This document shows, in pieces, positions 2,599-31,901 of a stretch of 64,000 bases of DNA. Origin of the DNA: an uncultured Actinomycetota bacterium (GTDB lineage: Bacteria; Actinomycetota; Humimicrobiia; Humimicrobiales; Humimicrobiaceae); the NCBI GenBank assembly GCA_964578625.1, contig CAZODQ010000001.1, positions 23,401 through 87,400 of the forward strand, written 5' to 3'. The notes under the pieces are model-generated. The model was given only the letters and a program-made list of their open reading frames with translations, made no database searches and was not told the origin of the DNA. The position numbers were made by a program, and so were the translations under genes. Each line of letters begins with the position of its first letter. Position 1 is the stretch's first letter.

Positions 2599-2667
2599 TT
2601 ATATATTCCAACAAACCTTAATATTAAAAACGCTATTAATTATATAAATATATATTATGTAAAAATC

Positions 2668-7311: not shown

Positions 7312-7349
7312 ACCCGATCATTACTTTTAATATATTTCCTGCAGCCGGC

Positions 7350-11815: not shown

Positions 11816-11842
11816 TCATACCACCAGTCGACAATCCCTTTG

Positions 11843-13468: not shown

Positions 13469-13479
13469 AAGAAGCCTTG

Positions 13480-14889: not shown

Positions 14890-14920
14890 TTAAATATCCC
14901 ACCTTACTTAAACTGAAATG

Positions 14921-15319
14921 TCATCCTCTGGAAATTACAATTACTCCTATAGTTATTATAAGTGCACCTATCCATCGTATTAAGTTTACATCTTCTTTCA
15001 GTATAAACTTTGAAAGAATCAATAACATTACATAAGTAGATCCAATAAACGGATAAGCAAAACTAAGGTCCACAGCAGATAGTACTACAAGCCATATCGC
15101 AGCTGAAATAATATATAAAAATAGACCAGATATTACCAGGGGACTTTTTATTATTCCAAGAAATAATTGACCGAGATAATCAAGCCCGTTTAAACTAACT
15201 ATCCTAATGCGGTTTATACCTATTTTCAATAACATCTGTCCACCCACAGCTATAGAGACGCTTAGTAAAATAAGTAATATTGTACTTACCAGACTCAATT
15301 TATTTCTCTCCTTAATCAT
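14921..15319 (-). CDS. Small 4-TM DMT/SMR-like membrane protein (ArnE/ArnF-like flippase subunit family)
   Basis: 132 aa, four hydrophobic segments, ...KEDVNLIRWIGALIITIGVIVI C-terminal pattern typical of EamA/SMR-type small transporters. Paralogous to 30940..31278 and 31282..31656. Confidence 0.5.
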   Translation of the reverse strand: MIKERNKLSLVSTILLILLSVSIAVGGQMLLKIGINRIRIVSLNGLDYLGQLFLGIIKSPLVISGLFLYIISAAIWLVVLSAVDLSFAYPFIGSTYVMLLILSKFILKEDVNLIRWIGALIITIGVIVISRG

Positions 15320-15352
15320 AGTTACACTATATTTTATTATCAGACTCGACAG

Positions 15353-17665
15353 TTAAGATCTATGTTTTCTTGCCAAATAATATTTGTTAGAGACAGTCAG
15401 GCCCATTATTCTGTCAATATTTTCCAGATCCCTCAGCAATACCTCAAGTTTCTGATCAATATCTATCTTCAGACCTGATTTGCTTTTGGGTTTAAAATTG
15501 CCTAAAACTTCCCTTAAACTACTAATATCATAACCAAGGCTTTTAATTTCTTTATGAAGAGTACGGAATATATCAAAATATATAAGAATCAATCTCTCCC
15601 GGTTCTTTCGATTCAGTTCATTCATTTCTTTATTTATTTGAACCTGAATATTATTATTAATGGCTTTTATCGACTGGTTATAACTCTTCCTTAAATTCTC
15701 AAAATACATACTGGTAAGGAGGTATATATATCTCCTCAGTCTTCCCTTTACATCCTTATCTTTACTCAGCTCTTCAGAATTTAAAATATCAAACCTGCTT
15801 AAAAGCCTTAAATCTTCAAAATTCTCTCTGTCCAGTTTTATCTCGAAAAGTTCAAATAATTCATTCCTGCCATATATCTCACCTATTTCATCTTTATTGC
15901 TATCTATTGTTCTATACTCTATTTCATCCCATATTCCCTTATCCTTGATCTCAAAACCGGCATTTTTTAATATATATTCAATAGTAAAATCATCAATTCT
16001 TACACTGGACCGGCTTCTTCTTGTACCCTCACCAAGAACCTTATAAAGCCCTCTTTCATCAGGAATTGAAAAAAACAGCAAACCATCCACTTTTAACTTT
16101 GATGCAAGTACGTTTATCAGGTCATAGAAAAATTTCGGAGATATTTTATAAAAGACATTATTTAAAATAATACCTTCATATTTGGTCCTTTCAGTTATTT
16201 TAGACTTTAGCATTCCTATTTCATCCAGCTCTTTCTCTTCATCTTCTATAACTGCCAGGCCAACATCCATCTCCATCCAAAATATTCTGCCCACATTAGT
16301 CCCACTTATAGCTTCTTCATCTCTATATTTATTAGAGGTTATATTCAGGACATTGGCACAGCCTTCAAAATTGTCTTTTATGATTTTTGATATTTTACTG
16401 TTCTGCAGATTAACCAACTCGGTGATCTTTTTCTTGTCAACCGCATAATCGGGATTAACACAGTATTTGACAAGCGGTTTGGTCACATTTTCCCAGTAAA
16501 ACCTGGGGGCAATTTTAATTAGATTTTTCCTGTATATCTCTCTTAAGCTTTTATTAGTAGCCATACTCTCCATGACTCTTGCCAGCTGTGCGGTATTTTC
16601 ATACTTTACCACTTCACCTATGTTCTCGGCCTTTACCATCTTCGCTATAGAATCCCCTTCGGTTGTTATAACCGGAAGTCGCGCCCAGATGTAATCTATG
16701 ACCCTCGTCCTATAGGAAAACTCGGTTTCTATCCTTTCTTGATGGATCGACAAGCCCACATCTGCGTCCAGCAGGAATGTCTGTCTTAGGTCGTATGGCG
16801 TCCATTCATTAAAAAATACAAGCTTTTCATACATATCGAGCTCTTTACTCAATTGTATTGCCTCCATGCATTTTTTCATTTCAGGAAGGCTGGAGTCCGG
16901 GTGTTTTATTCCCATAAATATCATTTTTATATTCTTTTTATCCCTGGTAATCTCCCATAATGCTTTAATAGCCGTAATTGGATCGAGCCAGTTCCAGATA
17001 CCACCTCCCCATAGGATTATACTGTCACGTTCATTGATACCCGGGATTCTATCCCCAGTATACGAAGTAGAGCGCTTGGGAGGCTGGGAAGGCATTCCGG
17101 AAGGAACAATATCTATCAGGTTCCTTAAGGTTTTATCGGAATCATAGCTGTACGGATTTATTCTACCCATGGCATTTAACATCCCTACCCAATAGTCCCT
17201 CTGTTTTTCACTTGCACAGATAAAGAAATCTCCTATTGAAAGCTGCATTTTCAATATATTTAAATTATTTTTATCAATTCTGATCCTCTCCGCAATATCA
17301 CTGTCTCTGAACATTTCCAGGCTCTCTAAATTGAAAGGATTATACAGATCTACAATAATCTTGCCTTTAAAGTTTCTGAGGAAAGGAAAATAGTAAAGAA
17401 TATGACCCTGGATCAATATGGTATCCGCCTTATCAATATATCTCTGTAAGCTTTTATAACTTCCTAACTTGTACTGTCTAGCCTTAAAGCCTTCAGTATC
17501 AATATCTATCTTATTGGGAGTAACCAGAGTAACATCCAGGTAATCAGATAAAATTTTTGCAAACTCGTAAAACCTTATACCTGGACCGGCCATATTTCTA
17601 CCAATGATGTCATAACTTATTATACAGATATTCGAAGAACTTTTATTGTTTAATTCGGTATCCAT
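15353..17665 (-). CDS. Multidomain protein: N-terminal GT-B (GT4-like, WGGG-type) glycosyltransferase, degenerate class-I methyltransferase-like domain and C-terminal coiled-coil
   Basis: 770 aa. The GT domain (IILWGGGIWNWLDP...LPVITTEGD) is paralogous to domains in 18850..20319 and 51638..54145. The middle region (KYEGIILNNVFYKISPKFFYDLINVLASKLKVDGLLFFSIPDE) aligns by eye to motifs II-III of the MTase 62433..63650 but has no GxGxG motif I. The C-terminal roughly 200 aa are heptad-rich and charged. Confidence 0.6.
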   Translation of the reverse strand: MDTELNNKSSSNICIISYDIIGRNMAGPGIRFYEFAKILSDYLDVTLVTPNKIDIDTEGFKARQYKLGSYKSLQRYIDKADTILIQGHILYYFPFLRNFKGKIIVDLYNPFNLESLEMFRDSDIAERIRIDKNNLNILKMQLSIGDFFICASEKQRDYWVGMLNAMGRINPYSYDSDKTLRNLIDIVPSGMPSQPPKRSTSYTGDRIPGINERDSIILWGGGIWNWLDPITAIKALWEITRDKKNIKMIFMGIKHPDSSLPEMKKCMEAIQLSKELDMYEKLVFFNEWTPYDLRQTFLLDADVGLSIHQERIETEFSYRTRVIDYIWARLPVITTEGDSIAKMVKAENIGEVVKYENTAQLARVMESMATNKSLREIYRKNLIKIAPRFYWENVTKPLVKYCVNPDYAVDKKKITELVNLQNSKISKIIKDNFEGCANVLNITSNKYRDEEAISGTNVGRIFWMEMDVGLAVIEDEEKELDEIGMLKSKITERTKYEGIILNNVFYKISPKFFYDLINVLASKLKVDGLLFFSIPDERGLYKVLGEGTRRSRSSVRIDDFTIEYILKNAGFEIKDKGIWDEIEYRTIDSNKDEIGEIYGRNELFELFEIKLDRENFEDLRLLSRFDILNSEELSKDKDVKGRLRRYIYLLTSMYFENLRKSYNQSIKAINNNIQVQINKEMNELNRKNRERLILIYFDIFRTLHKEIKSLGYDISSLREVLGNFKPKSKSGLKIDIDQKLEVLLRDLENIDRIMGLTVSNKYYLARKHRS

Positions 17666-17757
17666 TATATCTCTCCATTATGTCTACCATAAATAAAAAT
17701 TAAAATCATAAACAAATCCCAGTGCTCTCAAATAGTCCGGCTAATTTTGAGATGCAA

Positions 17758-18792
17758 TCATTTTAACTCTAATTTATTCAAGATTAAATGATTTTTTAAT
17801 TTAATTACCAAATTATATGGTAAAAATATAAAATTTAAAAAATAAGCATAAAGAATCGGCAAGACCTGGTCAGCTGTAGCACTGTTTTTAAACCAGGCCA
17901 ATTCTGAACAAATAAATTTTCTTAAGAAATTTAAAAATCCCAGATTTATAACTGCGCATCTGATTCTATTTTTATGGTAGTACTTATAAAAATTTTTACT
18001 AAATTTTTTTACAGAAGCACCCTCAAAATGTCTGGCAATAGAATTATAGTTTACAACCACCCGTCTCCCCGTTCTTTTGATTTTAATACAGTAATCAAGC
18101 TCCTCAAAATATAAAGGCCTGTAACCCGAATCAAATCCGCCTAAGGCTTTAAACAGCTGAAATTCAGTAGCCAAAAACGCTCCGGTAATATAATCTGCAT
18201 CTTTTAAATTGCCTGCTAATTCCGGCACATTTTTTTTATTTCCTTTATGTCTATATTCCTGTTTTAGATCATAATAACTTTTCCCGTACCCTATGTGGGA
18301 AGTAATAAAATTGTCCTCAATCCTCCCACCGAGGTGTTGTATGGCATCTTTTTTATAGTCAAGAATAAGTCCGCCTGCGGCTCCAATTTCTTTGAACGGT
18401 TTGCAGTGATTTTCCCCGATTTTGAAAGTCGAAACCAATTTCTGCAACGCGCTTCGCTTTAAACATATATCCGGGTTCAGCAAAATCAGGAATTTTAATT
18501 CTCTTTCCAGATTTTTATTCTCTCCTGATACAAAATTGAATACTGCATAATTGACCGCTCCTGAAAATCCGATATTTTTCCTTAGAGTAATAAGCTTAAA
18601 ACTACTGCTGGTCATACCCCGGTATATATCTCTGAACTCTTTTACCTTTGCTACTGTTTTATCATTTGAATTATTATCTATGACTGTCAGGAACCAGTCA
18701 TTATAACTTTGTTCTGCTACCGAACAGAGACAGTTTTCAATAAAGTCCTGGCTGTTATAGGTTACAATTACTATTAAACTTTTAGTGCCCAT
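17758..18792 (-). CDS. GT2 glycosyltransferase
   Basis: 344 aa. LIVIVTYNSQDFI...LTVIDNNSNDKT...NIGFSGAVN. Confidence 0.8.
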   Translation of the reverse strand: MGTKSLIVIVTYNSQDFIENCLCSVAEQSYNDWFLTVIDNNSNDKTVAKVKEFRDIYRGMTSSSFKLITLRKNIGFSGAVNYAVFNFVSGENKNLERELKFLILLNPDICLKRSALQKLVSTFKIGENHCKPFKEIGAAGGLILDYKKDAIQHLGGRIEDNFITSHIGYGKSYYDLKQEYRHKGNKKNVPELAGNLKDADYITGAFLATEFQLFKALGGFDSGYRPLYFEELDYCIKIKRTGRRVVVNYNSIARHFEGASVKKFSKNFYKYYHKNRIRCAVINLGFLNFLRKFICSELAWFKNSATADQVLPILYAYFLNFIFLPYNLVIKLKNHLILNKLELK

Positions 18793-18849
18793 ATTGCTTC
18801 CTGTTATAATCCGTATAATGCCAAGAGAAGGCAGGAGCGGGATAGAAGG

Positions 18850-20319
18850 TCAACTGGAGATTTTCCTTTTAATAATTCTTAGATACCCGTATATTTTATA
18901 AATCAAACCTTTCTTTACTATCCCTTCAAGCTCTGATATTCGCTTATCTCTCTCTTCTATCATCTTTTTCTGGCGCAGGGTTATTTGTACCAAATTCTTG
19001 ACAGCTTCTTCCCTCTTGAAAAAAAACTTTCTTTTTCTTCCTTTATCGGGGGAACATGAAGGATTACCAGTCCATTCCTGTAATTTCTTGGTAGTCCTTT
19101 TAAAATTAAAATGCTCCAGTCCGTATTTTTTACCGGCATCTGCAGTTTTTTTGACCTCATTCGGGTGATCAGCAAGATAGATCAGTTTACTGCTCAGCTC
19201 CCTATGATCATAAGGTTTAAATGTATATCCGATCTTTTCTTTCTCTATAATATTAGTCAATTCACAAACATTGGATGAAAGTACACAGAGCCCTGCCCTT
19301 AACCAGTCCAGAATACGGTTTTTACTGCCCAACCTTACCTCATAAATATCTCTGTCGATATTTATACCCACATCTGCTTCCATGTAATAATTAGGCACAT
19401 CTTCACCTTTGATCCAGCCTTTCATTATAAATCTGTCCTTATAAGAGCTGCCGTTTATCATAGATAAAAACCTGGGATAAGTCTTTATATCCTGTTCAGG
19501 TATCTCCCCGCCGGTAGATACAAATTTGATCTTTGGATTCTTCTCCATTGCAAGCGCAAGCCCCTTAAATAAAGTATCAACATCAGTCCAGGTATTATAT
19601 CCTCCGGTCCACAGCACTATAAAATCATCCTTTTTTATTCCATTTTTTCCCCGGAGAACATCCCTGGTATATTTGTATTCTTCCAGAGGAACACCGCATG
19701 GAATGACATTGGTAAAATCATAACCCGATGTGTATTTATTAAGTCTGCCGACTGCTCCAAGCTCCCCTATTAGAGCATACTGCTGCCTTGACGACACACA
19801 CGAAAAAATATCTGCATTGGATATAACATTATATTCACTATTCCAGTAATGAAACAGACAGTCGTCATTTTCATCAATACTTGCCCGAGCCTGTGCTTCT
19901 GCCATTACATGCCCAAATAAATCTGCCCAGAAAGGAACGGCACTGTCTTTAAGATAATAAAGCAGCCTGGAGGCGATATAAGAAGGATAAAAAGTGCAGC
20001 CGACTATACAGTCAGGTTTGAAAGATTTAAAAATTTTTAATATTAATTCAATATTTTCAAATTCATCTTTCTTAAGTATATTATAATTAAAATTGTACTT
20101 TAAACTTTTAGCAAAATCCTTTTTAAAACCTGACTTAAAATCATCTGGATATGCCGAGGGTATGGCATAATTACATACACACACCTTAAAATCTTTTTCC
20201 AGCAGAGGCAGTATAAATTGCCACGTTCTGATACCGGTCCCGTATACTTTTTTGTCATTCTCAAATGGTAACGGGCTCATTCCCAGTAAAAATACTTTTT
20301 TCATATCAAATAAAATCAC
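18850..20319 (-). CDS. GT-B glycosyltransferase (GT4-like, WGGG/WTGG-type) with short C-terminal coiled-coil
   Basis: 489 aa. IVLWTGGYNTWTDVDTLFKGL...ADVGINIDRD...AGLCVLSS is paralogous to the GT domains of 15353..17665 and 51638..54145. C-terminus has QKKMIEERDKRISELEGIVKK. Confidence 0.6.
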   Translation of the reverse strand: MILFDMKKVFLLGMSPLPFENDKKVYGTGIRTWQFILPLLEKDFKVCVCNYAIPSAYPDDFKSGFKKDFAKSLKYNFNYNILKKDEFENIELILKIFKSFKPDCIVGCTFYPSYIASRLLYYLKDSAVPFWADLFGHVMAEAQARASIDENDDCLFHYWNSEYNVISNADIFSCVSSRQQYALIGELGAVGRLNKYTSGYDFTNVIPCGVPLEEYKYTRDVLRGKNGIKKDDFIVLWTGGYNTWTDVDTLFKGLALAMEKNPKIKFVSTGGEIPEQDIKTYPRFLSMINGSSYKDRFIMKGWIKGEDVPNYYMEADVGINIDRDIYEVRLGSKNRILDWLRAGLCVLSSNVCELTNIIEKEKIGYTFKPYDHRELSSKLIYLADHPNEVKKTADAGKKYGLEHFNFKRTTKKLQEWTGNPSCSPDKGRKRKFFFKREEAVKNLVQITLRQKKMIEERDKRISELEGIVKKGLIYKIYGYLRIIKRKISS

Positions 20320-20498
20320 CGTGAGATTAAATCTTTTTATTTTACCGATTTTACCTATATAAATGAAATTATAAAATAAAATCGTTTTTCCGGACTAATC
20401 TTATTTTTTTAGCTTTTTTTAATTATAATTGTACTAATAAAAAAACTATACTACCATAGCATAAACGATAGAACACTAAAAACAATTTATTTTGTTTT

Positions 20499-22481
20499 AT
20501 GAAAGTTATATTAATAATACTTATAATTCTATTTCTAGCAATAACATCACTATACGGGATCACTATAATCAACAAAAATAAAAGTATTGACTACGAAGAC
20601 GAATATAGTCTAACAACAGAAGAAAAAAGTGAAGATAGCAAAACAACTTCTCCCGATTCAAAAGTAGAAACTATCGGTGACAATCAGGAAATTCTTAATA
20701 TTGATTTAGATAATATAGGAGCCGATGATGAAGAAAGCAATACTACAGAAGACAAACAGGAAGATTTAACCTCAGACGATGAAAAAACTCCGGAAACTCA
20801 ACAGAACGAGGGGGAGGAAGCTGAAGAAGAAGTTGAGGAAGTTGAAGAAGCCGAGGAAGAAGAATCAGAGGAAGAAGAAAAAATAGAGGATAATACCATC
20901 AGGATCTTCTTAGATGGAGATATGGAGAATGGTATATACCTGGGTGAAACAATATGTGACCAGGAATCAATAGAAGCATATGGTCTTTACGGAGAAGAAT
21001 TTAAAAATACGGGTTTTAAATTTACATGGGAAAATAATGATGTAAATTTCCTTCCAGGTTCAACCCATTATATTTATATATATTTCTATAGTACCGAATT
21101 AGGATGGGACCATATCAGAGAAGAAATAAATTTGCCGGGTGAAAAAGATTGTGAAAGGGACATAATAATCTTTATAGATAAACCACAGGAAAAAACCATT
21201 ACTGAAAGCCTTCAGTTAATTGATGGGTGGACTGTAGACTTGAGAAACGATGAAAGTCCGGGTATAAAAGAAGTAGAGATTTACTTAAACGGACCAAAGG
21301 ATTACGGCAAATCCATAGGCACAATACAGTATGGTATACCAAGATATGATGTAGTAGAATTTTTAAAAAACCAGAGCTATCTTAATAGTGGTTATCGGTT
21401 CGATGAACCAATTGATCTTGAACCCGGGTCCAAGCATACACTATTCATATATGCCTACAGTTCACAAGACAATTCATTCAATTATGAAAAAAGAGAAATT
21501 TACCTGTCAGGAATAAAAGAAGAAAAAGCAATAATTAAAGCTCAAATTAACCAGGAAAAACTCTCTCAAGATAATATCATCGAAGTTACCGGTTGGGCTA
21601 TTAATAAAAAAATTCTAGAGGATTACCTAAAAGAAAAACTAGAGCTTGAGAAGGAAACTACTGAAAGTGAAGATGGATATTCTATAAAAAAGGCAGTATT
21701 TACCTCTAATAGGGACGGTAATAAAAACATTTACAGTATAAATATTGACGGGACAGGAATCACCAGGTTGACCAGTTATTCTGGAAATGATTTTTATCCG
21801 GAGGCATCACAGGACGGACATAAAATTGCCTATGCTTCAGACATTGGAGGCGTATGGCAAATAATGGTCATGGATTGGGATGGGAAAAACAAAAAACAAA
21901 TTACCCATAATAGTTTCCGCTGTGGATATCCCAGCTGGTCTTTCGACGGCAAATATATATATTTTGAAGCTTATATTGACGGAGATTGGGAACTTTTCAG
22001 GATAAACAGCAATGGGACAGGCCAGAAAAGGCTGACCTTTGATTCTAATCACAACGACTGGCATCCAAACGGACATCCATTCAAATATAAAATTATCTAT
22101 GAATCAGGTGTTACCGGACATGAAAACATCTATGTAATGGATCATAATGGTTCAGGAATCAAAAATATATGTGATAGCGGTCCCAGAAGAAGAGTCCCAG
22201 ATGTATCAAACGATGGAAATAAAATAACTTATATGAGGTACTCCGGAGATAATAGTGAAATTTGGATTATGGATTACAGCGGACAAAACGAAACAAGGCT
22301 TACCTCTAATCCCGACTGGGATGGACATCCATCATTTTCCCCGGACGATAAATATATTATTTATGATGAGAAAAAAGGATCTAAAGAAGATTTGATTTTA
22401 ATAGATCTTGCCAGTGGAATAAAGACAAATATAACTAATTCTTCCAGTATTGATGAAGATCCAAGTTTTCTATACCGGTAG
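20499..22481 (+). CDS. Membrane-anchored surface protein: N-terminal TM, poly-Glu/Asp linker, two repeats of an ~85-aa domain, C-terminal TolB-like PD40 beta-propeller
   Basis: 660 aa. N-terminus VILIILIILFLAITSLYGI; acidic low-complexity run EEAEEEVEEVEEAEEEESEEEEK. The C-terminal ~270 aa carry repeated PD40-type blades (FTSNRDGNKNIYSINIDG, ASDIGGVWQIMVMDWDG, FDGKYIYFEA, SNDGNKITYMRYSG, SPDDKYIIYDE). Confidence 0.7.
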   Translation: MKVILIILIILFLAITSLYGITIINKNKSIDYEDEYSLTTEEKSEDSKTTSPDSKVETIGDNQEILNIDLDNIGADDEESNTTEDKQEDLTSDDEKTPETQQNEGEEAEEEVEEVEEAEEEESEEEEKIEDNTIRIFLDGDMENGIYLGETICDQESIEAYGLYGEEFKNTGFKFTWENNDVNFLPGSTHYIYIYFYSTELGWDHIREEINLPGEKDCERDIIIFIDKPQEKTITESLQLIDGWTVDLRNDESPGIKEVEIYLNGPKDYGKSIGTIQYGIPRYDVVEFLKNQSYLNSGYRFDEPIDLEPGSKHTLFIYAYSSQDNSFNYEKREIYLSGIKEEKAIIKAQINQEKLSQDNIIEVTGWAINKKILEDYLKEKLELEKETTESEDGYSIKKAVFTSNRDGNKNIYSINIDGTGITRLTSYSGNDFYPEASQDGHKIAYASDIGGVWQIMVMDWDGKNKKQITHNSFRCGYPSWSFDGKYIYFEAYIDGDWELFRINSNGTGQKRLTFDSNHNDWHPNGHPFKYKIIYESGVTGHENIYVMDHNGSGIKNICDSGPRRRVPDVSNDGNKITYMRYSGDNSEIWIMDYSGQNETRLTSNPDWDGHPSFSPDDKYIIYDEKKGSKEDLILIDLASGIKTNITNSSSIDEDPSFLYR

Positions 22482-22983
22482 TAGACGGCTTTTCCACTTG
22501 GCGTTTAGCTTCATGTTTAAACCTTTTGTATTTTACTGCAAATCTCAACCTAATAGATGAACCAATGGAAATTCCAAGCCATAAAGACCAAATAATATTA
22601 TTGGAAAAGAAATAATAAACAAGGTCTGAGACAGTTAAGTCTGTACCAAAGAACTTAACCGCTATCAGATTAACAGCACCTGTGCCGTTGAGTATTAAAG
22701 CAAGAGCTGGAATAAAACCCACTATTAGAAACACCTTGATATCAAAATAATTCCTTTTAGCTTTGGGTTTCATAGTAAGAATTATTAAAAGCCCGATCAT
22801 AAAACCAATAATAAAAACAATAAAATATCTCAGGAGACTCAAGTAACCAGCAGATATATTATAACCAGCAAAGGCATCCAATATATTATCAAAGTAGGCA
22901 AAGCCCGCATAGTAAAGAATTATGTTTATAAAACTGAATACCGTTAGAAAAACTCTCATTTTCTTCCAGCTGATAATATACAT
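22435..22983 (-). CDS. Small polytopic (about 4-TM) membrane protein of unknown family
   Basis: 182 aa. Paralog of 24939..25418 (shared MR[VI]FL..FSFIN...IIWSLWLGISIGSSIRL-type motifs). Its 3' end overlaps the 3' end of the convergent gene 20499..22481 by 47 nt. Confidence 0.5.
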   Translation of the reverse strand: MYIISWKKMRVFLTVFSFINIILYYAGFAYFDNILDAFAGYNISAGYLSLLRYFIVFIIGFMIGLLIILTMKPKAKRNYFDIKVFLIVGFIPALALILNGTGAVNLIAVKFFGTDLTVSDLVYYFFSNNIIWSLWLGISIGSSIRLRFAVKYKRFKHEAKRQVEKPSTTGIENLDLHQYWKN

Positions 22984-23158
22984 GTATAAATAAACAATTA
23001 GATGTTAGCTCAAAAATATATTAATTTCAATTAACCCTGTAATCTGTTATACTTTTAAACCTGAAAAATATATTTTATTAATTTAATAAATATAATTAAA
23101 TTACTCTTTAATTTTTTAATATTCAAATAAAACCTTTGATATTTAGATATTAATAAGA

Positions 23159-24937
23159 ATGAAAACAGTAACCATAATAACCATAATTTTATTTCTGACA
23201 GCATCAATTTTTCTTGGGATTGTAGTCTTCAAATATATTGGAACTAAAATATTTTCTGATACGGAGATTTCCGAAATAGAGCAAAATATTCCAGAACAGG
23301 ATATTCCGACAGTAGCTGAAGAAAATGAGGAGGAAGTTGAAAAGGAAGTTGAAATAGACACTGAAGATATAGCCGCAGTAGAAATATATCTCGATGGTAA
23401 CAGCGAAAACGGCATCTTTTTAGGAGAGGCATCATACGGAACTACCTCCGAAGAAGCTTCTATTATCTATGGTGAAGACTTTTCAGATTCCGGTTTTCTT
23501 CTTTCTTTAGATAATAAAGGTTATGTTTTTGAACCGGGTTCGATCCACTACCTTTATGTATACACTTCAATACCAAAATATGGGTGGGATTACATCCGTA
23601 AAAAGATTTCGATCCCAGGAGAAACAGACTACGATGATAGTATTCAATTCTCTATAGATGACCCATCACATAATACAATAATAAAAGGAGCCGATAAAGC
23701 CAATATACGTGTATCCGGCTGGTCAGTGGACCTTGATCATTTAGATTCTACCGGTATTGATAGAATAGAAGTATATTTAAACGGGCCAAGGGGCTTTGGA
23801 AAATCCGAAGGTCCTGTGGATTATGGAATTGAACGGTCGGATGTGGCCAATGCATTTCAAAACGCAAATTATACCAATTCGGGTTATTCCCTTTATTTCG
23901 ATGGGAGTCAACTTGAAGACGGGAGCGAAAATACCCTATATATTTATTACTATTCCACCTCTGGTACTTATTCTTTAGCTATGGTGGATTTTAAAATAGA
24001 AGGTGAGGAAAAAGAATCCAATGCTGTAATCTCAATAGAAGATTATGATTTTAATGATCAGATTATAGAAATAATTGGATGGGCTACAAATAAAGATTGG
24101 ATACTGGAAGGTAGACCCCCACGAAGCCTGGACGTAGAATATTCTACTAAAAAAATAGTCTTCACTTCCAATATGAATGGTAATGAAGATATATTCAGTA
24201 TGAATATAGATGGTTCTGAACTTACTCAATTAACAGATTATCCAGGAAAAGATAATTACCCTGCTGTTTCTCCAGATGGGGAAAAAATTGCATATACCTC
24301 GGACATTAACGGCACATGGCAGATCATGGTCATGAACTGGGATGGAACAGAAAAGGTACAGCTTACCCATAATCCCTGGAGAAGCGGATATCCAGCCTGG
24401 TCTTTTGATGGAAGATTTATCTACTTTGAAGCAGCCCCGGAGGGAGATTATGAAATATACAGAATAGACAGCGACGGAAGTAATATGAAACGGCTTACAT
24501 TCAATCCAAACATTGATGACTGGCATCCCTATGGTCATCCTTTCCAATATAAAGTCATTTACGAATCCGGAGCATCAAGAAACGAGGACCTTTACATAAT
24601 GGATTATGATGGTAAAAATATTAAAAGGATTTCTGATATAAATATGAGGAAAAGAGTCCCTGCAATTTCAGTTGATGGAAAATTAATTGTTTTTAGTGAT
24701 AATTCTTCTATCTATACTATGGACAGTAATGGAGAAAATATAAAAAAAATTACCGAAAACCTTGCGAATTGCAGACATCCCGATATCTCACCTGATAATA
24801 ATTATATAACTTTTGAGGGCGGTGCCGAGGGACAGGAAGATATATATATTGTTAATCTTAACGGTTCAAACCCTGTAAAGCTGACTAATTTTCCAGGGAC
24901 TGATTATGATCCCTCTTTTATGTATCAGACACCTTAA
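23159..24937 (+). CDS. Paralogous membrane-anchored TolB-like PD40 beta-propeller surface protein
   Basis: 592 aa. Same architecture as 20499..22481: TM (VTIITIILFLTASIFLGIVVF), short acidic stretch, two ~85-aa repeats (VEIYLDGNSENGIFLGE..., IEVYLNGPRGFGKSEG...), PD40 blades (FTSNMNGNEDIFSMNIDG, TSDINGTWQIMVMNWDG, FDGRFIYFEA, SPDNNYITFEG). Confidence 0.7.
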   Translation: MKTVTIITIILFLTASIFLGIVVFKYIGTKIFSDTEISEIEQNIPEQDIPTVAEENEEEVEKEVEIDTEDIAAVEIYLDGNSENGIFLGEASYGTTSEEASIIYGEDFSDSGFLLSLDNKGYVFEPGSIHYLYVYTSIPKYGWDYIRKKISIPGETDYDDSIQFSIDDPSHNTIIKGADKANIRVSGWSVDLDHLDSTGIDRIEVYLNGPRGFGKSEGPVDYGIERSDVANAFQNANYTNSGYSLYFDGSQLEDGSENTLYIYYYSTSGTYSLAMVDFKIEGEEKESNAVISIEDYDFNDQIIEIIGWATNKDWILEGRPPRSLDVEYSTKKIVFTSNMNGNEDIFSMNIDGSELTQLTDYPGKDNYPAVSPDGEKIAYTSDINGTWQIMVMNWDGTEKVQLTHNPWRSGYPAWSFDGRFIYFEAAPEGDYEIYRIDSDGSNMKRLTFNPNIDDWHPYGHPFQYKVIYESGASRNEDLYIMDYDGKNIKRISDINMRKRVPAISVDGKLIVFSDNSSIYTMDSNGENIKKITENLANCRHPDISPDNNYITFEGGAEGQEDIYIVNLNGSNPVKLTNFPGTDYDPSFMYQTP

Positions 24938-24938
24938 C

Positions 24939-25418
24939 TTACTTGGAATTTTCCTTTTCAGTTTTATCAATTGACATATGCCTGTATACTCTACCAGAAA
25001 AACTGAAGCGTACCGATGAACCTACGGCAAAACCAAACCATAATGACCAGATAGCCTGTCTTGAGAAAAGATAAAACACCATTTCGCTTAACTTTTCACT
25101 TGAGTTGAAAAATTTATTTATAATAAAACCGGTAATAGTACCCTCGGACAGTATAAGACAGATAAACGGAATAATTCCAATAATTATAAGGTTTTTAAAA
25201 CTAAAAAGACTTTTCTCTATATTTAACCGCATTATAAGCATTATACTTACACCCATACAAAATCCGACAATTAAAAGTGCTGTCAGTTTGATATAATTAG
25301 CCGCTGTCGGAGATAAATTCACTGCTCCCAATATTTCCAAAATCTTATCAAAAAAAGAATATATAAGAATATAAAAAATGGTATTAATAAAAGAAAATAT
25401 TATTAAAAAAATCCTCAC
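24939..25418 (-). CDS. Small polytopic membrane protein, paralog of 22435..22983
   Basis: 159 aa. Conserved segments with 22435..22983 (MRIFLIIFSFIN..., AIWSLWFGFAVGSSVRF). Lies 1 nt from the stop of the convergent propeller gene. Confidence 0.5.
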   Translation of the reverse strand: MRIFLIIFSFINTIFYILIYSFFDKILEILGAVNLSPTAANYIKLTALLIVGFCMGVSIMLIMRLNIEKSLFSFKNLIIIGIIPFICLILSEGTITGFIINKFFNSSEKLSEMVFYLFSRQAIWSLWFGFAVGSSVRFSFSGRVYRHMSIDKTEKENSK

Positions 25419-25488
25419 GATCTATCCTTCTCCTCTTATTTAAATACATTTGTCTTTGACATATTAATAAAAATTATATCTAAAATAA

Positions 25489-27309
25489 CTAAAGCCTCTG
25501 TCCAACACTGCCGAGATAATGAGAGACATAACTAAAAACCGTATGGGCAACAACTGAAGCTCCAGCCGGACTGTAATGCATTCCGTCAACAAGATACTCT
25601 CCCGGATTCTGTGACAGCGGAGTCATTACATCTATAACTACCACCCCATGTTTTGCAGCAATCTGTTTAATTATTTCGTTATATTTTGGATATCCTTCTT
25701 TACCAGACCGATATATAGGACCGATAAGATTAATAAATACCCTGGCACCCAGATTCTTTGCCTTAATGATCAAACCTTCAATATTGTGATCAAATCCCGA
25801 ATATCTGGGACCGACATCATTAGTTCCATAGGCAATTATGATTATATCAGGATGGTATACAGATACAGTACTATCAAATCTTTCATAGCCACCACCTGAC
25901 ATCTCGCCACCCTTTCCACTGGCAATGGTATTGTATTCTGCATATGGATAATTAGCCTCCAGGAGCCCGTCAAACGTTTGTACCCAGTTAGACATTTCTA
26001 TTAAAGAATCGCCCATCGCAACAATAGTCAGGTTAACATTTCCTTTGACATTAAGACTTTTAGACGGCAGCTCAATTTCTCCATTGCCGTCTTCAATTTT
26101 AAAATGAGTGGTAATCGTGCCCCCCGTATTGACCAGGTTATCATTTATCTTCATACTGAAAGTTATTTCTTTTTCCTCTCCCATACCCAGATCTTGTAAA
26201 TCCCATATAAGGCCCCTTATGTCATCACTCCATCTAATTCCTTCTGCAGTACCCGACCTGCTAATATAAGTAGCTTCAGCAGGTATGGGACAAATAACTC
26301 TATAATTTTCCTCTTTCTTATCACCAGTATTTCTAACCATAATTTTTACACCTATGGTTTCACCAGGCCAAAGTTCTCTGCCATTTGTATCATATATATA
26401 ATCTTCCGATGTACTTAAATCAGAAAAAAGACTTAACTCTTCCTCTACCGACTTTTCTATAACTGTTGATCCATATTTTAAAGTACCCTGATTAGTTATG
26501 AGTTCATCACCGTTTAAGTCATCTTTTACCTTGACTTCGAAGGAAAAAGTCCTGGGTTTATTTATTTCTATATTATTAACTTTCCATAATACATAATTAT
26601 CCTTATATTCACCTAACCCGGTGATAGAATTTTCAATTATATTCACATATTCCGATAGATCGCTTCTAATTTCTACATCAGAAGCATCCATATCACCGGT
26701 ATTTTCTACTGTCAGATTATATTGTATAACATCACCCAGCATAACAATGTCGCCGTTTTCATCAATAGCTTCTAATTTGAAATTATTTAGATTAGGACTG
26801 CTTTCAATCTTACTGACCAGATCCGCACCAATATCATCATTAAATGAATCTCTCCCCGCTCCGTATCTAAATTTCACTTTATCCAGTTCAATCAAAGTAC
26901 CATTGTCCAGCGGCTTATCCGCCTCCACTATGAAATTAATGCTGTCTCCTTCATTTCTTTTAACATTTCCAATTTCAAAATCCAGAGTTCTATCATCATT
27001 TGTTAAAGTACTGTTATGGTCCGATGATACAAAAAAAGTATTATCCGGTACCTCAAGTTCTATTACCAAATCCTCTATATTTCTGTTTCCTGTATTCTTA
27101 AAGTTTATTGTGTATGTTATTTCCTCACCGGGTTTTAAATATTCACCCTGATCACTGTATATAAAATTAGATTGTCTATCACCAAAAATTGGTTTGGCAA
27201 GATAAATTTTAAAATAATAAAAGACACCAAATGATATCACAATAAATATGACTATAAGATAAATCCATCTTCTATCACTTTTTATATAATTTAAAAATCT
27301 CTTAAACAT
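25489..27309 (-). CDS. Membrane-anchored protein with DUF11/CARDB-like repeats and C-terminal SGNH (GDSL) hydrolase domain
   Basis: 606 aa. N-terminal TM (WIYLIVIFIVISFGVFYYF). Repeats of the type GEEITYTINFKNTGNRNIEDLVIELEVPDNTFF and GDVIQYNLTVENTGDMDASDVEI. The C-terminal region has GDS-block (VAMGDSLIE), GTND block and a DGMHYS DxxH block of SGNH esterases. Confidence 0.65.
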   Translation of the reverse strand: MFKRFLNYIKSDRRWIYLIVIFIVISFGVFYYFKIYLAKPIFGDRQSNFIYSDQGEYLKPGEEITYTINFKNTGNRNIEDLVIELEVPDNTFFVSSDHNSTLTNDDRTLDFEIGNVKRNEGDSINFIVEADKPLDNGTLIELDKVKFRYGAGRDSFNDDIGADLVSKIESSPNLNNFKLEAIDENGDIVMLGDVIQYNLTVENTGDMDASDVEIRSDLSEYVNIIENSITGLGEYKDNYVLWKVNNIEINKPRTFSFEVKVKDDLNGDELITNQGTLKYGSTVIEKSVEEELSLFSDLSTSEDYIYDTNGRELWPGETIGVKIMVRNTGDKKEENYRVICPIPAEATYISRSGTAEGIRWSDDIRGLIWDLQDLGMGEEKEITFSMKINDNLVNTGGTITTHFKIEDGNGEIELPSKSLNVKGNVNLTIVAMGDSLIEMSNWVQTFDGLLEANYPYAEYNTIASGKGGEMSGGGYERFDSTVSVYHPDIIIIAYGTNDVGPRYSGFDHNIEGLIIKAKNLGARVFINLIGPIYRSGKEGYPKYNEIIKQIAAKHGVVVIDVMTPLSQNPGEYLVDGMHYSPAGASVVAHTVFSYVSHYLGSVGQRL

Positions 27310-27399
27310 CTATATTGTCTCAACATTTGTATTTATAAAAAAACAGCTTTATATTATATCAAAAATCTAATATCTAAATAAAGCCCTTTGCTTACAATC

Positions 27400-27780
27400 C
27401 TAATTCTTTATGTTCATTTCAATATCATCACAATCAATATAATTATCACGATAAGTTGCCCTGAACTTTATTAAAGAATTACCGGGAGTGCTGCCCTTAA
27501 GTTTCACAATTAGATTAATCTTACCGTTCCCTTTTATTACATATGAATCACTTACCCACATATATATACCATTACTCAAGCCGGGATACTGATTAATATA
27601 TCCATCAAGGCTTACTCCTTCAAATCCAATATTATCCGGGAGTTCTAATTCGAGAGAACTGATTTTAGCATCATACTCATTGGTGTTTCTTATAATATAT
27701 TCAACAGTAAATTCCTCTCCGATTTCCTTGGTATAATCGTCAACCATATATTCAATTTTGATACTCCTATCCAGATTTAA
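27400..27780. repeat. About 0.38-kb DNA-level repeat (copy 1) encoding the shared DUF11-like C-terminal domain
   Basis: Nucleotide similarity is visible between 27400-27780 and 29013-29395. For example, 27548-27600 cccacatatatataccattactcaagccgggatactgattaatatatccatcaagg matches 29166-29222 cccacatatacataccccggctcaagccaggatcctgatcaatatatccggaagg. Confidence 0.7.
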
Positions 27781-28992
27781 ATAATTAACATATTGATCGG
27801 GTGGAATATAGCTATTAAATTCTACTCTTTTTATGTTATTGAGATTAATCGTTCTCATATCTTCAATTCCGCCCCAGTATCTTACTGCACCCCTATAACC
27901 CGCTTCCGGAATTAAATGCCATTTTGAGGAAGAATTATTATCATAAGGCCATGCAAAAAATAGAACTTCATTTCCCAGGTGTGATTCTATATCCTCCTTT
28001 GATTGGGTGAGTTCATATAAAAACTCATCATCAGTAGCAAGGCCCAATCTTACATGATTTACTGTATGTGATAAAAACTCACATCCATACTCATACATCT
28101 CTTCGATTTCAGGCCATATAAGTATCGGCCTTATTACATCAGTTCTCTTATTAAAATAAGCATTTGTCTTTCTTTCAGCTTCCGTTTCCCCGATTGCTCC
28201 GGTGACCAGAAAAACAGTCATCTTATACCCATACTTTTTAAGAATGGGAAACCCATTGGTGTAAACATCCTGGAATCCATCATCAGAGGTTATGATCACC
28301 GGCCTTTCGGGCAGTGCTTTACCAAAGTCTATATAATTTAAAACATCAGTAAAGGTAATGGTTTCATATCCGTATTCTTTTAATACCTTACACAATCTAT
28401 CGAAATGGCTGGTATACAGTTCTATTGCAGCTCCAATATCATCCTCTATAGCATGTAATCCTATTATTGGAATAAAATTCCCTTCAAAATGCTTAACACC
28501 ATAAACCATTATGCCATAATCAGGACTTGTAAAAGAATCCACTTCGTCTGAAGATATTTCCAGCCTGCACCATGCCAGTATGTCTTCAGTTATCTTATCC
28601 GTTAAAGTCAGAGTGGTATTAAAAGTAATCCTCTCCCCCGCATCCAGAACATCAACATTCCAGCTGGTTTCTTTCCCGTTGGATATAAAGAAATTGTCGT
28701 AAGTAAGGTCGACTTTTACATTGTTTACCTTTATACCGCCGTTATTTAAAACAGTTACATTTACCTCTAATTTTTCACCGGGATATGTGTCACCGCCATT
28801 TATATCCACAAATTCTACAGTGGAACCGGTAAATGACGGAAATAACTCTTCGGCAATACTACTGCTATTATCCCTGCCGCTAATTCCGGCAAGTAAGGAA
28901 CAGCTGACAAGAATCACTAAAATAATTATTATAAAAACGGATAATATAAATATATTAATTCTTTTTTTAGGATTTTTCTTCAGAAACATCAT
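27400..28992 (-). CDS. Polysaccharide deacetylase (CE4/NodB) with N-terminal TM, CARDB-like domain and C-terminal DUF11-like domain
   Basis: 530 aa. CE4 motifs ITSDDGFQD (TFDDG-type) and HTVNH. The C-terminal ~120 aa (GEEFTVEYIIRNTNEYDAKISSLELELPDN...) are about 60% identical to the C-terminus of 29013..30902. Confidence 0.7.
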   Translation of the reverse strand: MMFLKKNPKKRINIFILSVFIIIILVILVSCSLLAGISGRDNSSSIAEELFPSFTGSTVEFVDINGGDTYPGEKLEVNVTVLNNGGIKVNNVKVDLTYDNFFISNGKETSWNVDVLDAGERITFNTTLTLTDKITEDILAWCRLEISSDEVDSFTSPDYGIMVYGVKHFEGNFIPIIGLHAIEDDIGAAIELYTSHFDRLCKVLKEYGYETITFTDVLNYIDFGKALPERPVIITSDDGFQDVYTNGFPILKKYGYKMTVFLVTGAIGETEAERKTNAYFNKRTDVIRPILIWPEIEEMYEYGCEFLSHTVNHVRLGLATDDEFLYELTQSKEDIESHLGNEVLFFAWPYDNNSSSKWHLIPEAGYRGAVRYWGGIEDMRTINLNNIKRVEFNSYIPPDQYVNYLNLDRSIKIEYMVDDYTKEIGEEFTVEYIIRNTNEYDAKISSLELELPDNIGFEGVSLDGYINQYPGLSNGIYMWVSDSYVIKGNGKINLIVKLKGSTPGNSLIKFRATYRDNYIDCDDIEMNIKN

Positions 28993-29012
28993 AGCTTACT
29001 CTTATTTTTAAA

Positions 29013-29395
29013 TTAATCTGTTATTTCCATTTCAATATCATCACAGTTAACATAAACCTCATTTGTAGTCAACCTAAACTTAATAGGTGACTTTCCCGGC
29101 TTGGTACCCCTAAGTTCTACAATTAAATTTATTTCATCTTCTCCCTCAATAACATATGAATCACTGACCCACATATACATACCCCGGCTCAAGCCAGGAT
29201 CCTGATCAATATATCCGGAAGGAATTGTTCCTATAAATTTAATATTATCCGGAAGCTCCAGTTCAAGCGAGCTGATTTTAATGCTTTTTTTATTCTTATT
29301 ACTGATTATATATTCAACGGTAAATTCCTCACCATATTTTCTACTGTAACTATCGCTGTAGTAATCTATTTCCACATTCACGACAGTTTCATTGA
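29013..29395. repeat. About 0.38-kb DNA-level repeat (copy 2) encoding the shared DUF11-like C-terminal domain
   Basis: See copy 1. The encoded peptides share GEEFTVEYII.N.N...KISSLELELPDNI.F....GYI.Q.PGLS.G.YMWVSDSYVI.G...INLIV.L.G..PG.S.IKFR.....Y..CDDIEM.I. Confidence 0.7.
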
Positions 29396-30902
29396 CCTTA
29401 TAAAGTTTTAATGTTTCATCGTATCTATCCCAGGTATAAGTTTTTCCTACCTGTTCGGCATCAAATATGGATAACAATGCATTATTATTGCCTACAAAAT
29501 ATACAGTAATGCCGTCATCCAGAGATTTAATCATATCCTCAACCGTATATTCAGGAACCTTATGAGAAATATACTCTATATTTTTTTCACCATATTCATA
29601 TCGATCTACAAACATTCCTATATTGGTTGATTTCGCCAGAACATATACTTTGGAATTACTCTCCATGTTACTGAAAGCTTCGTCCCAGAATTTGTAAACA
29701 TCCGGGGGCTCCGAAAGATCAAGTTTATTATAATTTTTCATAATAAAGTATAATGGCAGAAAAGTAAAAAATAAGATCAATATGACCATTACAAAATATT
29801 TTAAAAAGTTACTAATTTTCGGGATTTTACTGTTCTTAATCAATTTATCAAAAAGAAATATTGACCTATTTAGTATAAATAACATTCCAAATGCTATATA
29901 AAAAGAAAAAACAATCATGGAATTAAGCAGATAATTACGGAGCGCATGACCTGCGTAAAGAGGTGGTATAATAAAATTTAAAATTACCAGCAAAAATGTA
30001 CAAAGGCTAAACTTTAAATTTTTTCTAATTAAAAAGATAAATCCTATCAACGCTATAATTAGAAGTACGATACCATAACTCTGGTAAACCATATTAAGAT
30101 AATCTTTCAATACCTTGAGGATCAATGAAAGATTTTTATCACCAAAACTTCCTCCATGAAGTTCACCTGTTACTTCCCTCCCCATTATATAATAAAAAAA
30201 TCTCAAAGGAGTGGTTACTCCTCCATAACCTTGAAGGGACCTTATAGGAAGATATAAATATGATAGAAGAGGTAGAATAAAATATAATATACTGAGAAGG
30301 ATTGCCTTAATGCTTTTAAAAATCCGTGGATTTACAATAATTACATATAAAACAATGGCCGGAACCAGAAAAAAAGCAAGAGGATGATTGGTCAAACTTA
30401 AACCGAGACAGAAAGAGAAAAAATATAAATATTTTCTTGTTTTATTTTCTTTATAAATAATTGCCGAAAAAAACAACAAAACTATAAAAAAACTGTTTAA
30501 TGTATCAAATTCCAGCCTATTTGCCACTTCCCAGAAAGGCACAATAAAAGCAAATATCATAGAGCTTATAAAGCTTATAAACTCATTTTTTACCAGTTTA
30601 TTTATTGAAAGAAATAAAAATAATAGGGTAAGCGCACCAAATACTGCAGAAAAAAGATTAAGCCTGTAAGCAAGATCAGCAATAGGTAAAAAAGTGAAAA
30701 GTTTCTCCAATAAGGAGAAGGTCGGATACCCGGTGGGCACCATTAAACTCATTTCAGTAACCTGAAGTGCATACCAGCTGGTATCTCCCCCGATTAATTT
30801 ATGCTCCAATGTGAGTATATAAATAACTAGTGGTATAAGAAAAGAGAAAACCGCAAATATGACTTTTTTCTTACCAATAAGGAATTCTTTGATTTTTTGC
30901 AT
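29013..30902 (-). CDS. GT-C superfamily integral membrane glycosyltransferase (ArnT/PMT-like or DUF2723-like) with C-terminal extracytoplasmic DUF11-like domain
   Basis: 629 aa. About 11 hydrophobic segments in the first ~400 aa, with an early Asp-containing loop (IGGDTSWY) as in GT-C enzymes that use polyprenyl-phosphate sugar donors. The C-terminal soluble domain is shared with the CE4 protein. Confidence 0.5.
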   Translation of the reverse strand: MQKIKEFLIGKKKVIFAVFSFLIPLVIYILTLEHKLIGGDTSWYALQVTEMSLMVPTGYPTFSLLEKLFTFLPIADLAYRLNLFSAVFGALTLLFLFLSINKLVKNEFISFISSMIFAFIVPFWEVANRLEFDTLNSFFIVLLFFSAIIYKENKTRKYLYFFSFCLGLSLTNHPLAFFLVPAIVLYVIIVNPRIFKSIKAILLSILYFILPLLSYLYLPIRSLQGYGGVTTPLRFFYYIMGREVTGELHGGSFGDKNLSLILKVLKDYLNMVYQSYGIVLLIIALIGFIFLIRKNLKFSLCTFLLVILNFIIPPLYAGHALRNYLLNSMIVFSFYIAFGMLFILNRSIFLFDKLIKNSKIPKISNFLKYFVMVILILFFTFLPLYFIMKNYNKLDLSEPPDVYKFWDEAFSNMESNSKVYVLAKSTNIGMFVDRYEYGEKNIEYISHKVPEYTVEDMIKSLDDGITVYFVGNNNALLSIFDAEQVGKTYTWDRYDETLKLYKVNETVVNVEIDYYSDSYSRKYGEEFTVEYIISNKNKKSIKISSLELELPDNIKFIGTIPSGYIDQDPGLSRGMYMWVSDSYVIEGEDEINLIVELRGTKPGKSPIKFRLTTNEVYVNCDDIEMEITD

Positions 30903-30939
30903 ATATACTCCTTAAAACAATTTCTTTTATCAAAGCAAC

Positions 30940-31278
30940 CTATAAATTAAATATTATGACTCCTGCAATAACCAAAATATTTCCTAAAACCCTTAATCTG
31001 TCAACATCTTCTTTAAGAACTCTCCATGAAAACAACATAACAAAAAAGTAGCTTAATGCAGTAAAAGAATAAAAATTTGAAAAATCAATCACTCTCATAG
31101 TGATTATGGAAAGTATTGGAACCAGTAAAAATAAAAATATGCTTATCAATAGATATTTATTCTTAAAATTATAAATTAAAGGCTTTTTAAAATCTAACCT
31201 GATAGCTCCCATTTTAAGAATAACCTGAGCCAGAGCGACCAGTAACTGGATAGTGACTGCTAAAAAAATATAAAGCAT
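30940..31278 (-). CDS. Small 4-TM DMT/SMR-like membrane protein (ArnE/ArnF-like)
   Basis: 112 aa. ...WRVLKEDVDRLRVLGNILVIAGVIIF. Adjacent to a second paralog and to GT-C and GT2 genes. Confidence 0.5.
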   Translation of the reverse strand: MLYIFLAVTIQLLVALAQVILKMGAIRLDFKKPLIYNFKNKYLLISIFLFLLVPILSIITMRVIDFSNFYSFTALSYFFVMLFSWRVLKEDVDRLRVLGNILVIAGVIIFNL

Positions 31279-31281
31279 ATA

Positions 31282-31656
31282 TCAGACTCCTTCCAGCTTT
31301 TTACTGGACATGGTTATAATAATAACTCCGGACACTATTACAGCGGAACCTATTATTTTCATTAAAGTGATGTCTTCCCCAAATAAAATCTTCCCCAAAA
31401 ACAATGAAAAAAAGTAATTTAAACTTAAGAACGGATATATAAAAGACAGCTGAAATTTTCTATGCAGAATAAGCCAGAATGTAAATTTCAAACCGTAGGT
31501 CAGTATAAGAACAGATAACCAAAGGATAAAAATACTTGAGATATTAAGATTTATACCAATATATTTACCCGCTATTATACTTAATAAACTAATGCTGATA
31601 TTAAGGATGATTATAAGGATATAAAAAAATTTTTTACTGGTGTCTCTAAATTTCAT
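31282..31656 (-). CDS. Small 4-TM DMT/SMR-like membrane protein (ArnE/ArnF-like)
   Basis: 124 aa. ...ILFGEDITLMKIIGSAVIVSGVIIITMS. Forms a pair with 30940..31278, like ArnE/ArnF heterodimers. Confidence 0.5.
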   Translation of the reverse strand: MKFRDTSKKFFYILIIILNISISLLSIIAGKYIGINLNISSIFILWLSVLILTYGLKFTFWLILHRKFQLSFIYPFLSLNYFFSLFLGKILFGEDITLMKIIGSAVIVSGVIIITMSSKKLEGV

Positions 31657-31901
31657 CTTTTATTTTTTAATGATTTAAATCAAATAAACATCGTGAAACA
31701 CATTTTATATCAGAATTAATTAAATTATAAGTTTTTTTTATAGTGTATATAAAAGCATAAAAAAATCTTAAAGCCTATTATTTTTTGTGTTATAGTTATA
31801 AAATTATTTAAATTGAACAACAGTAAAATATCTTACATACGGACAATCTTTTATTCAATTGTAACTGAGTTATAAATAAGAGTCTTGATAACAAAATTAA
31901 T

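Follow-up and report, generated by a model that had tools for sequence, protein, structure and literature searches.

We analyzed a 64-kb stretch of DNA (hereafter, the window) from an uncultured low-GC Actinomycetota bacterium represented by Humimicrobiia-type metagenome-assembled genomes (MAGs). The window carries two consecutive gene pairs, each consisting of a + strand gene for a membrane-anchored PD40 β-propeller protein (prop1 and prop2) and a convergent − strand gene for a small membrane protein (smp1 and smp2). The two pairs are paralogous, and the same convergent adjacency of smp and propeller genes recurs throughout the related loci. On balance, we lean toward the reading that the two proteins constitute a co-inherited envelope module, in which smp would be the dedicated membrane partner of the propeller protein, and that this module acts in or on the glycan of the surrounding locus.

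The first unit is composed of prop1 (20499–22481, + strand) and smp1 (22435–22983, − strand), and the second unit is composed of prop2 (23159–24937, + strand) and smp2 (24939–25418, − strand). prop1 encodes a protein of 660 amino acids (aa) with a transmembrane (TM) anchor, an acidic linker of ~110 aa, two β-sandwich domains, and a six-bladed TolB-like PD40 propeller. prop2 encodes 592 aa with a TM anchor, an acidic linker of ~45 aa, two β-sandwich domains plus a hairpin, and a six-bladed PD40 propeller. Both smp genes encode orphan four-TM membrane proteins, of 182 aa for smp1 when counted from the first ATG and of 159 aa for smp2, which begins at a GTG codon preceded by the ribosome-binding site (RBS) GGAGAAGG. 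The likely true start of smp1 is M9 at 22959, the position that aligns with the orthologs and at which the smp1/smp2 alignment begins. The four open reading frames (ORFs) and their tandem convergent layout lie exactly where a model working from the letters alone had placed them (hereafter, the sequence-only reading), and the ORF coordinates confirmed the distances between the stops: the last 47 nt of smp1 overlap prop1, and the stops of prop2 and smp2 are 1 nt apart. prop1 and prop2 were 45% identical over 536 aa (E = 7e-155), in agreement with the roughly 40–50% estimated earlier. smp1 and smp2 were 35% identical over 160 aa (E = 2e-30), which shows that the two small membrane proteins are paralogs rather than unrelated proteins.

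The related loci came from exact-protein look-ups and from scans of genomes (35 loci) and metagenomes (13 loci); both families were then located in them by hidden Markov models. All 54 non-redundant smp/propeller pairs were adjacent and convergent, and the same was true of the loci fetched later (L047, L011, and five further complete L010-type pairs). The pairing thus recurs in related genomes, as the sequence-only reading had proposed to check by a search for co-occurrence, with Candidatus Hakubella as the exception. Two tandem units, as in the window, were the commonest layout among the Humimicrobiaceae-type loci. A single unit was found beside the same divergent glycosyltransferase operon (GT4-GT2-GT770) that adjoins prop1, for example in L006, L007, L037, L041, L044, and L047. 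The adjacency also outlasted local rearrangements, since it was retained in the order smp-smp-propeller (L005, L009, L036, and L038) and in the order propeller-smp-smp-propeller (L039).

Two divergent lineages extend the range of the pair. In the L010-type lineage (L010, L051–L053, L055, and L056), smp is ~36% identical to smp2, and the propeller protein (357–364 aa) has only the anchor and linker before the propeller. In L011, the identity of smp to smp2 is 27%, and smp is paired with a fusion of an Amidase_3 domain and the propeller. The amidase domain (N-acetylmuramoyl-L-alanine amidase) is N-terminal in this protein (L011 6350–8368, − strand) and stands in place of the first β-sandwich, hinting at a connection of the propeller family with peptidoglycan. 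The upstream neighbor of the L011 propeller gene is weakly LppM-like. A further locus, L054, contains at 1944–3086 an smp gene (+ strand), a propeller fragment of 105 aa (− strand), and a second, weak smp-like ORF (− strand), which may represent a rearrangement or an assembly chimera.

We compared neighbor-joining trees of smp and of the paired propellers, the latter built from the C-terminal 340 residues. The two trees were congruent at the major clades, namely type 1, type 2 together with the single-unit loci, L010, and L011, and prop1 proved to be an ortholog of the type-1 propellers in the related loci. Because the trees agree at these clades, the pair was duplicated as a unit, with the partners co-diverging since. 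Together with the invariable convergent adjacency, this congruence supports the view that the smp/propeller pair is an evolutionary unit. The duplication is old, because only ~66% DNA identity remains between the units over 543 nt of the propeller core. The stalks of the two copies have also diverged in length, as given above for the linkers. A recent duplication or an assembly artefact was ruled out by this low identity and by the occurrence of the two-unit layout in independent MAGs and metagenomes.

The DNA upstream of the propeller genes also bears on the duplication. Between smp1 and prop2 lies a near-invariant intergenic block of ~68 nt (23000–23067), which an alignment showed to be conserved across loci whose proteins are only 60–70% identical. 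An nhmmer search with this block gave one match per two-unit locus, with E values down to 4e-18. Rfam gave no match at E ≤ 1 over 20200–25600, the block included. The block contains the palindrome TTAATT-TC-AATTAA at 23021–23034. A promoter scan assigned the extended −10 TGTTATACT to prop2 (+ strand) and TTGAAA-17-TAACAT to smp1 (− strand). The block reads as putative back-to-back promoters, the −35 regions of which would coincide at the palindrome. The block upstream of prop1 shares this architecture: a composite motif at 20419–20452 (+ strand) consists of the palindrome TTAATT-AT-AATTG followed by TATACT 47 nt before the ATG, and it lies within a block that is near-invariant in 13 loci. The pattern TTAATTNNAATTR-N(10-16)-TATACT had exactly two matches in the 64 kb, at 20419–20452 and 23021–23053, against an expectation of 0.01. 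It was also present in 20 related loci, at positions that the gene coordinates place upstream of propeller genes. Because the composite motif sits upstream of each propeller paralog only, the duplication probably took in the promoter/operator, and both propeller paralogs probably answer to one regulator. In regard to smp2, the upstream DNA contained no conserved block beyond the RBS, so this gene may be co-transcribed with the neighboring GDSL esterase gene.

Several other features were noted in the upstream regions. The divergent single-unit loci (L006, L032, L041, L044, L045, and L047) carry another conserved promoter-like block, TTTATTATATATTTA followed by a AAAACAATAAAA leader, ~40–140 nt upstream of the propeller start, and the AAAACAATAAAA leader also occurs downstream of TATACT in prop1-type genes. 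Partial copies of the intergenic promoter block lie upstream of prop2 in L017 (8335–8388) and L014 (8335–8388). L017 has a second, fuller copy at 12094–12159, ~3.7 kb beyond the first, an arrangement that looks like an insertion of DNA between prop2 and the smp1 unit.

The propeller architecture described by the sequence-only reading (TM anchor, acidic linker, repeated domain, and PD40 propeller) was confirmed by Pfam and by an AlphaFold2 (AF2) model. Pfam PD40 (PF07676) matched the two window propellers with 75.5 and 71.6 bits (cutoff, 20.9), and the other Pfam matches were DPPIV_N and DUF5050. The AF2 model of prop2, based on an alignment of 32 orthologs, had a pLDDT (predicted local distance difference test) score of 87.7. 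It consists of a TM helix (residues 2–31), a disordered acidic linker (residues 28–65), a first β-sandwich (residues 73–151), a second, larger β-sandwich (residues 162–280), a β-hairpin (residues 289–311), and the propeller (residues 330–592), in which the pLDDT was >88 in each 10-residue block except the last (84). The blade count of six was read from the sequence repeats and from the match to TolB, whose propellers were the best solved-structure matches of prop2 (Foldseek, E = 3e-19; phmmer, E ~1e-13). The two β-sandwich domains of prop2 were weakly but significantly related in a direct domain-to-domain comparison (33% identity over 63 aa, E = 6e-6), which upholds the earlier suggestion of two copies of an ~85-aa domain; a BLAST self-comparison did not detect this internal repeat. 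The β-sandwich region alone (prop2 residues 73–318) had no sequence match in the PDB. The bacterial Ig-like domain Big_7 (PF17957) scored 19.9 bits (E = 0.0012) in prop2, under its gathering cutoff of 24.1 bits, and PF17957 is listed for several orthologs.

The hydrophobic segment at the N-terminus of the propeller proteins is moderately conserved, with a near-invariant Gly and no obvious signal-peptidase site. We infer from these features that the segment is an uncleaved signal anchor that places the propeller outside the cell (type II, extracytoplasmic). The Pfam and NCBIfam searches detected no catalytic domain in the window propellers and neither an SLH domain nor any other recognized wall-anchoring domain that would mark them as S-layer proteins, for which the sequence-only reading had allowed; the anchor is the N-terminal TM helix. 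All propeller partners retain this anchor, the acidic linker, the signatures WQIM.M and DWHP..HPF, and a DP.FLY C-terminus, and the middle domains vary. The middle module is swapped between lineages: two β-sandwiches in the window, Amidase_3 in the L011 lineage, and none in the L010-type lineage. Blade 3 (prop2 residues 453–461, ~24515–24541, and the equivalent positions of the other propellers) carries an invariant DWHP.GHPF with two histidines, which replaces the usual P.wSPDG turn. The W, the first His, and the HP of this signature are retained even in the L010 and L011 orthologs, and the signature may be a ligand or metal site.

The smp proteins have four hydrophobic TM segments and additional short helices according to hydropathy and an AF2 model. 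The TM helices span residues ~2–29, 37–63, 74–90, and 121–135, and the short helices lie between the last two (residues 93–119). By the positive-inside rule (N-terminal MR, RLKIKRS loop, and R/K-rich tail), the topology would be N-in and C-in. The conserved residues are mainly G56, G81, P84, and the block E..FYLFSRQ.IWSLWLGF..GSS.R, which covers the outer segment between TM3 and TM4 and TM4 itself. Conservation ends at approximately residue 147, and the C-terminal tail is variable. The smp family matched nothing in Pfam, NCBIfam, PDB, PHROG, and PADLOC searches, in agreement with the earlier failure to assign these proteins to a family. An exhaustive profile search of 1.84 billion representative proteins yielded 20 clusters at 50% identity, and the named sources were all Actinomycetota MAGs (Humimicrobiaceae/Humimicrobiales, Candidatus Hydromicrobium, Candidatus Calidifonticultor, and Candidatus Hakubella). 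Judging from these few clusters and their sources, smp is a lineage-restricted orphan family whose distribution follows that of this propeller subfamily.

These observations are consistent with the following model for deep-branching, uncultured Actinomycetota (Humimicrobiia and relatives). The propeller protein would be a type-II anchored, extracytoplasmic protein that carries a six-bladed PD40 propeller and a swappable middle module on an acidic stalk. smp would be its dedicated integral-membrane partner, which may dock or organize the TM anchor of the propeller protein or relay to the cytoplasmic face. The module would act on, or together with, the envelope glycan that the surrounding glycosyltransferase locus produces. 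In Humimicrobiaceae, a single ancestral pair would have been copied whole, along with the propeller promoter/operator, and the copies would then have diverged. The face-to-face arrangement with near-zero spacing would be ancestral and would keep the genes linked, each being transcribed from its own promoter.

The glycan-locus context on which part of this model depends was confirmed by a Pfam scan of the neighboring genes (9775–20319 and 25489–34553), which identified glycosyltransferases, a GDSL esterase, a deacetylase, a GT-C protein, EamA halves, and a radical SAM protein. The operon divergent from prop1 (15353–20319, − strand) encodes a GT4 (489 aa), a GT2 (344 aa), and a GT1-like protein of 770 aa (the GT770 mentioned above), and it adjoins the pair in most related loci whose contig reaches far enough. 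Upstream of smp2 (25489–30902, − strand) are genes for a GDSL esterase (DUF11/CLIPPER), a polysaccharide deacetylase (CARDB), and a TMEM260-like/PMT_2 GT-C, and these smp2-side neighbors are conserved in the two-unit loci. The esterase and the deacetylase (25489–28992) each possess N-terminal DUF11/CLIPPER/CARDB β-sandwich repeats and an N-terminal hydrophobic segment. At 29013–32858, the TMEM260-like/PMT_2 GT-C, a GT2, and a small protein of the EamA type look together like a three-component system for extracytoplasmic (protein O-)glycosylation, of which the acidic, serine/threonine-rich linkers of prop1 and prop2 would be plausible substrates. prop1 and prop2 are the only + strand genes in the ~22-kb − strand run of glycan genes at 9775–31656 (ORFs of ≥120 aa that are not antisense within a longer − strand ORF). 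The GC skew flips its sign locally, being +0.095 and +0.022 at 20–24 kb and negative on either side.

This context also allows another account, to which we give a modest chance. According to it, smp serves the glycan pathway as a generic membrane component, such as a flippase or polymerase accessory, and merely lies beside an independent propeller gene by inherited synteny in a narrow clade. The smp genes share their strand with the surrounding glycan genes, and because no conserved promoter precedes smp2, this gene may belong to one transcript with the GDSL esterase, deacetylase, and GT-C genes. However, the neighbors change from the GT4-GT2-GT770 operon to radical SAM/LPG_synthase_TM genes and to housekeeping genes, and the smp/propeller junction persists. 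The duplication of the pair as a unit, the congruent trees, and the persistence of the adjacency through local rearrangements likewise argue for more than a shared neighborhood. Moreover, smp showed no profile similarity to GtrA (PF04138), EamA (PF00892), or any transporter family, and the locus already contains flippase-like EamA halves.

Several observations nevertheless weigh against the dedicated two-protein module, and most of them favor inherited synteny. The taxonomic range is limited to one Actinomycetota group, and inherited synteny could therefore account for part of the conservation. The context of the divergent L010-type lineage is still related to glycans or glycolipids (epimerase, GT2, radical SAM/SPASM, two LPG_synthase_TM, and hexapeptide transferase genes), which leaves L011, where the pair lies outside a glycan locus among NadA, topoisomerase, fumarase, and isoprenoid genes, as the sole clearly different context. 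Some loci have two smp genes beside one propeller gene, so the stoichiometry is not fixed. Candidatus Hakubella thermalkaliphila has an smp homolog (E = 1e-42) with no propeller gene within 7 kb. This homolog (7001–7477 in both L049 and L050) is 41% identical to smp2, follows a RadC gene, and is convergent with an ABC-transporter operon. Candidatus Hakubella is the only lineage seen without the pairing, which is thus not universal. We read its solitary smp as a secondary separation, because more divergent lineages retain the pairing. In addition, the smp model is only moderately confident (pLDDT of 68) and resembles no known fold. Finally, cooperating partners are usually co-transcribed, and the smp and propeller genes are not. 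To our knowledge, conserved convergent pairs are the rarest kind of conserved bacterial gene neighborhood.

The junctions of the 54 pairs were examined in regard to the convergent arrangement itself. The gap between the smp and propeller genes had a median of +4 nt (range, −65 to +159 nt), and overlaps were present in 26 of the 54 pairs. In most relatives, it is unit 2 that overlaps (typically by 53 nt), and unit 1 has a gap of +12 to +49 nt; the window shows the reverse. The window smp1 carries a C-terminal extension of 21 aa that is missing from the six orthologs compared, which end in ...KFKHQ(V/I)xx, and of the seven type-2 tails compared, that of the window smp2 is the joint shortest. Because the overlap lies in the variable tail of smp, the extension is missing from orthologs, and the overlapping unit flips between genomes, the overlap is incidental and results from drift of the stop codon in the non-conserved C-terminal tail. 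The sequence-only reading had regarded the convergent, overlapping arrangement as conserved; the convergent adjacency proved to be so, but the overlap did not.

A scan found no intrinsic-terminator-like site at either junction of the window. The mean folding energy in 60-nt segments across 47 junctions showed no dip in minimum free energy and no conserved structure. We rejected a shared or bidirectional terminator on these results and a conserved antisense overlap on the variable gap, the flipping unit, and the smp1-specific tail; the functional coupling through antisense or terminator sharing that had been suggested earlier is thus not supported. A related account, in which the convergent layout is itself the mechanism and transcriptional interference or excludon-like 3′ antisense pairing makes smp and propeller expression antagonistic, draws on some of the same data. 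With a median spacing of 4 nt and nearly half of the pairs overlapping, and with no terminator-like site at either junction of the window, the transcripts have to end within the partner gene or past it. Furthermore, a single palindromic −35 region seems to serve both the predicted smp1 promoter and the predicted prop2 promoter, which could enforce either/or expression. However, neither the presence nor the length of the overlap is conserved, the overlap is confined to the smp tail, the junctions have no common structure, and the gaps reach +159 nt in some lineages. We see a slim chance for this account.

A holin/endolysin-like or hydrolase/immunity pair, in which the role of smp would be to release or activate a wall-active propeller protein or to protect against it, would suit the small size, multiple TM segments, and charged C-terminal tail of smp and the Amidase_3 domain of the L011 partner, but it has scant probability, given that smp had no PHROG match below E = 0.07 and no holin family among its matches, no PADLOC match, and no BFVD match by Foldseek below E = 2.9, that the propeller partners have their own N-terminal signal-anchor and mostly lack a catalytic domain, and that the genes are convergent rather than in lysis-cassette order, with no phage context.

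We compared the module with known systems. The window propellers resemble TolB in their six-bladed PD40 propeller, whose closest PDB match in both sequence and fold is TolB, and in their probable extracytoplasmic location. They differ from TolB in several respects. The TolB profile TIGR02800 scored 140.7 and 158.5 bits with partial coverage, compared with an equivalog cutoff of 343. The N-terminal α/β domain by which TolB binds TolA (TolB_N) was found neither by Pfam nor in the AF2 model; a TM helix, a disordered linker, and β-sandwiches precede the propeller instead. TolB is soluble and periplasmic, whereas the window propellers have an apparently uncleaved TM anchor and an acidic stalk. No tolQRA or pal genes were found among the Pfam-scanned neighbors or in related loci. 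Membership in the TolB family was rejected on the basis of the score, the missing TolB_N domain, the anchored form, and the missing tol-pal operon context. As a further difference, the host is a member of the Actinomycetota and presumably monoderm.

The nearest functional analogy known to us is LpqB of Actinobacteria, a membrane-tethered propeller-like lipoprotein that is co-transcribed with mtrAB and is thought to modulate the histidine kinase MtrB. Both cases concern a tethered envelope propeller that is genetically linked to a membrane protein in Actinomycetota. In contrast, the present partner is a four-TM orphan that has neither a kinase domain nor any other known domain, and its gene converges on that of the propeller. 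In the excludon of Listeria, convergent genes have overlapping or abutting 3′ ends with no terminator between them. The smp and propeller genes share this geometry and have no terminator-like site at either junction of the window, but their overlap is short, variable, and often absent, so that a 3′ overlap conserved among orthologous loci was not found, and the partners look cooperative rather than opposed. Enzyme fusions of the PD40/DPP-IV/tricorn type (S9 peptidases and Amidase_3) belong to the same superfamily, and the L011 ortholog is itself such a fusion, whereas Pfam and NCBIfam revealed no catalytic domain in the window propellers. A possibly related clade, of small propellers that carry a single helix, is mentioned in a paper on TolB-like proteins (PMC12204202).

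A literature search on this gene pair and on the Humimicrobiia envelope returned nothing, and the pair is previously undescribed; its taxonomic range is narrow, and it has no bearing on a major open question. The two units provide a clean case of a two-gene module that was apparently duplicated together with its promoter/operator. We see a small chance for a bolder extension of the two-protein module, in which smp and the propeller protein would be a new envelope device of deep-branching anaerobic Actinomycetota, a complex that senses or organizes a secondary wall glycan or peptidoglycan and whose expression is governed by a dedicated palindrome-binding regulator and by the either/or promoter and the convergent geometry. 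If true, this would give monoderms a counterpart to Tol-Pal and other propeller-based envelope systems, and its membrane partner would be entirely new. The pair ties the orphan smp family to a TolB-like propeller in a lineage that has no cultured representative and whose envelope is uncharacterized. If the two proteins do form a complex, the pairing would give the first functional handle on smp and would represent a new use of PD40 propellers in a presumably monoderm envelope.

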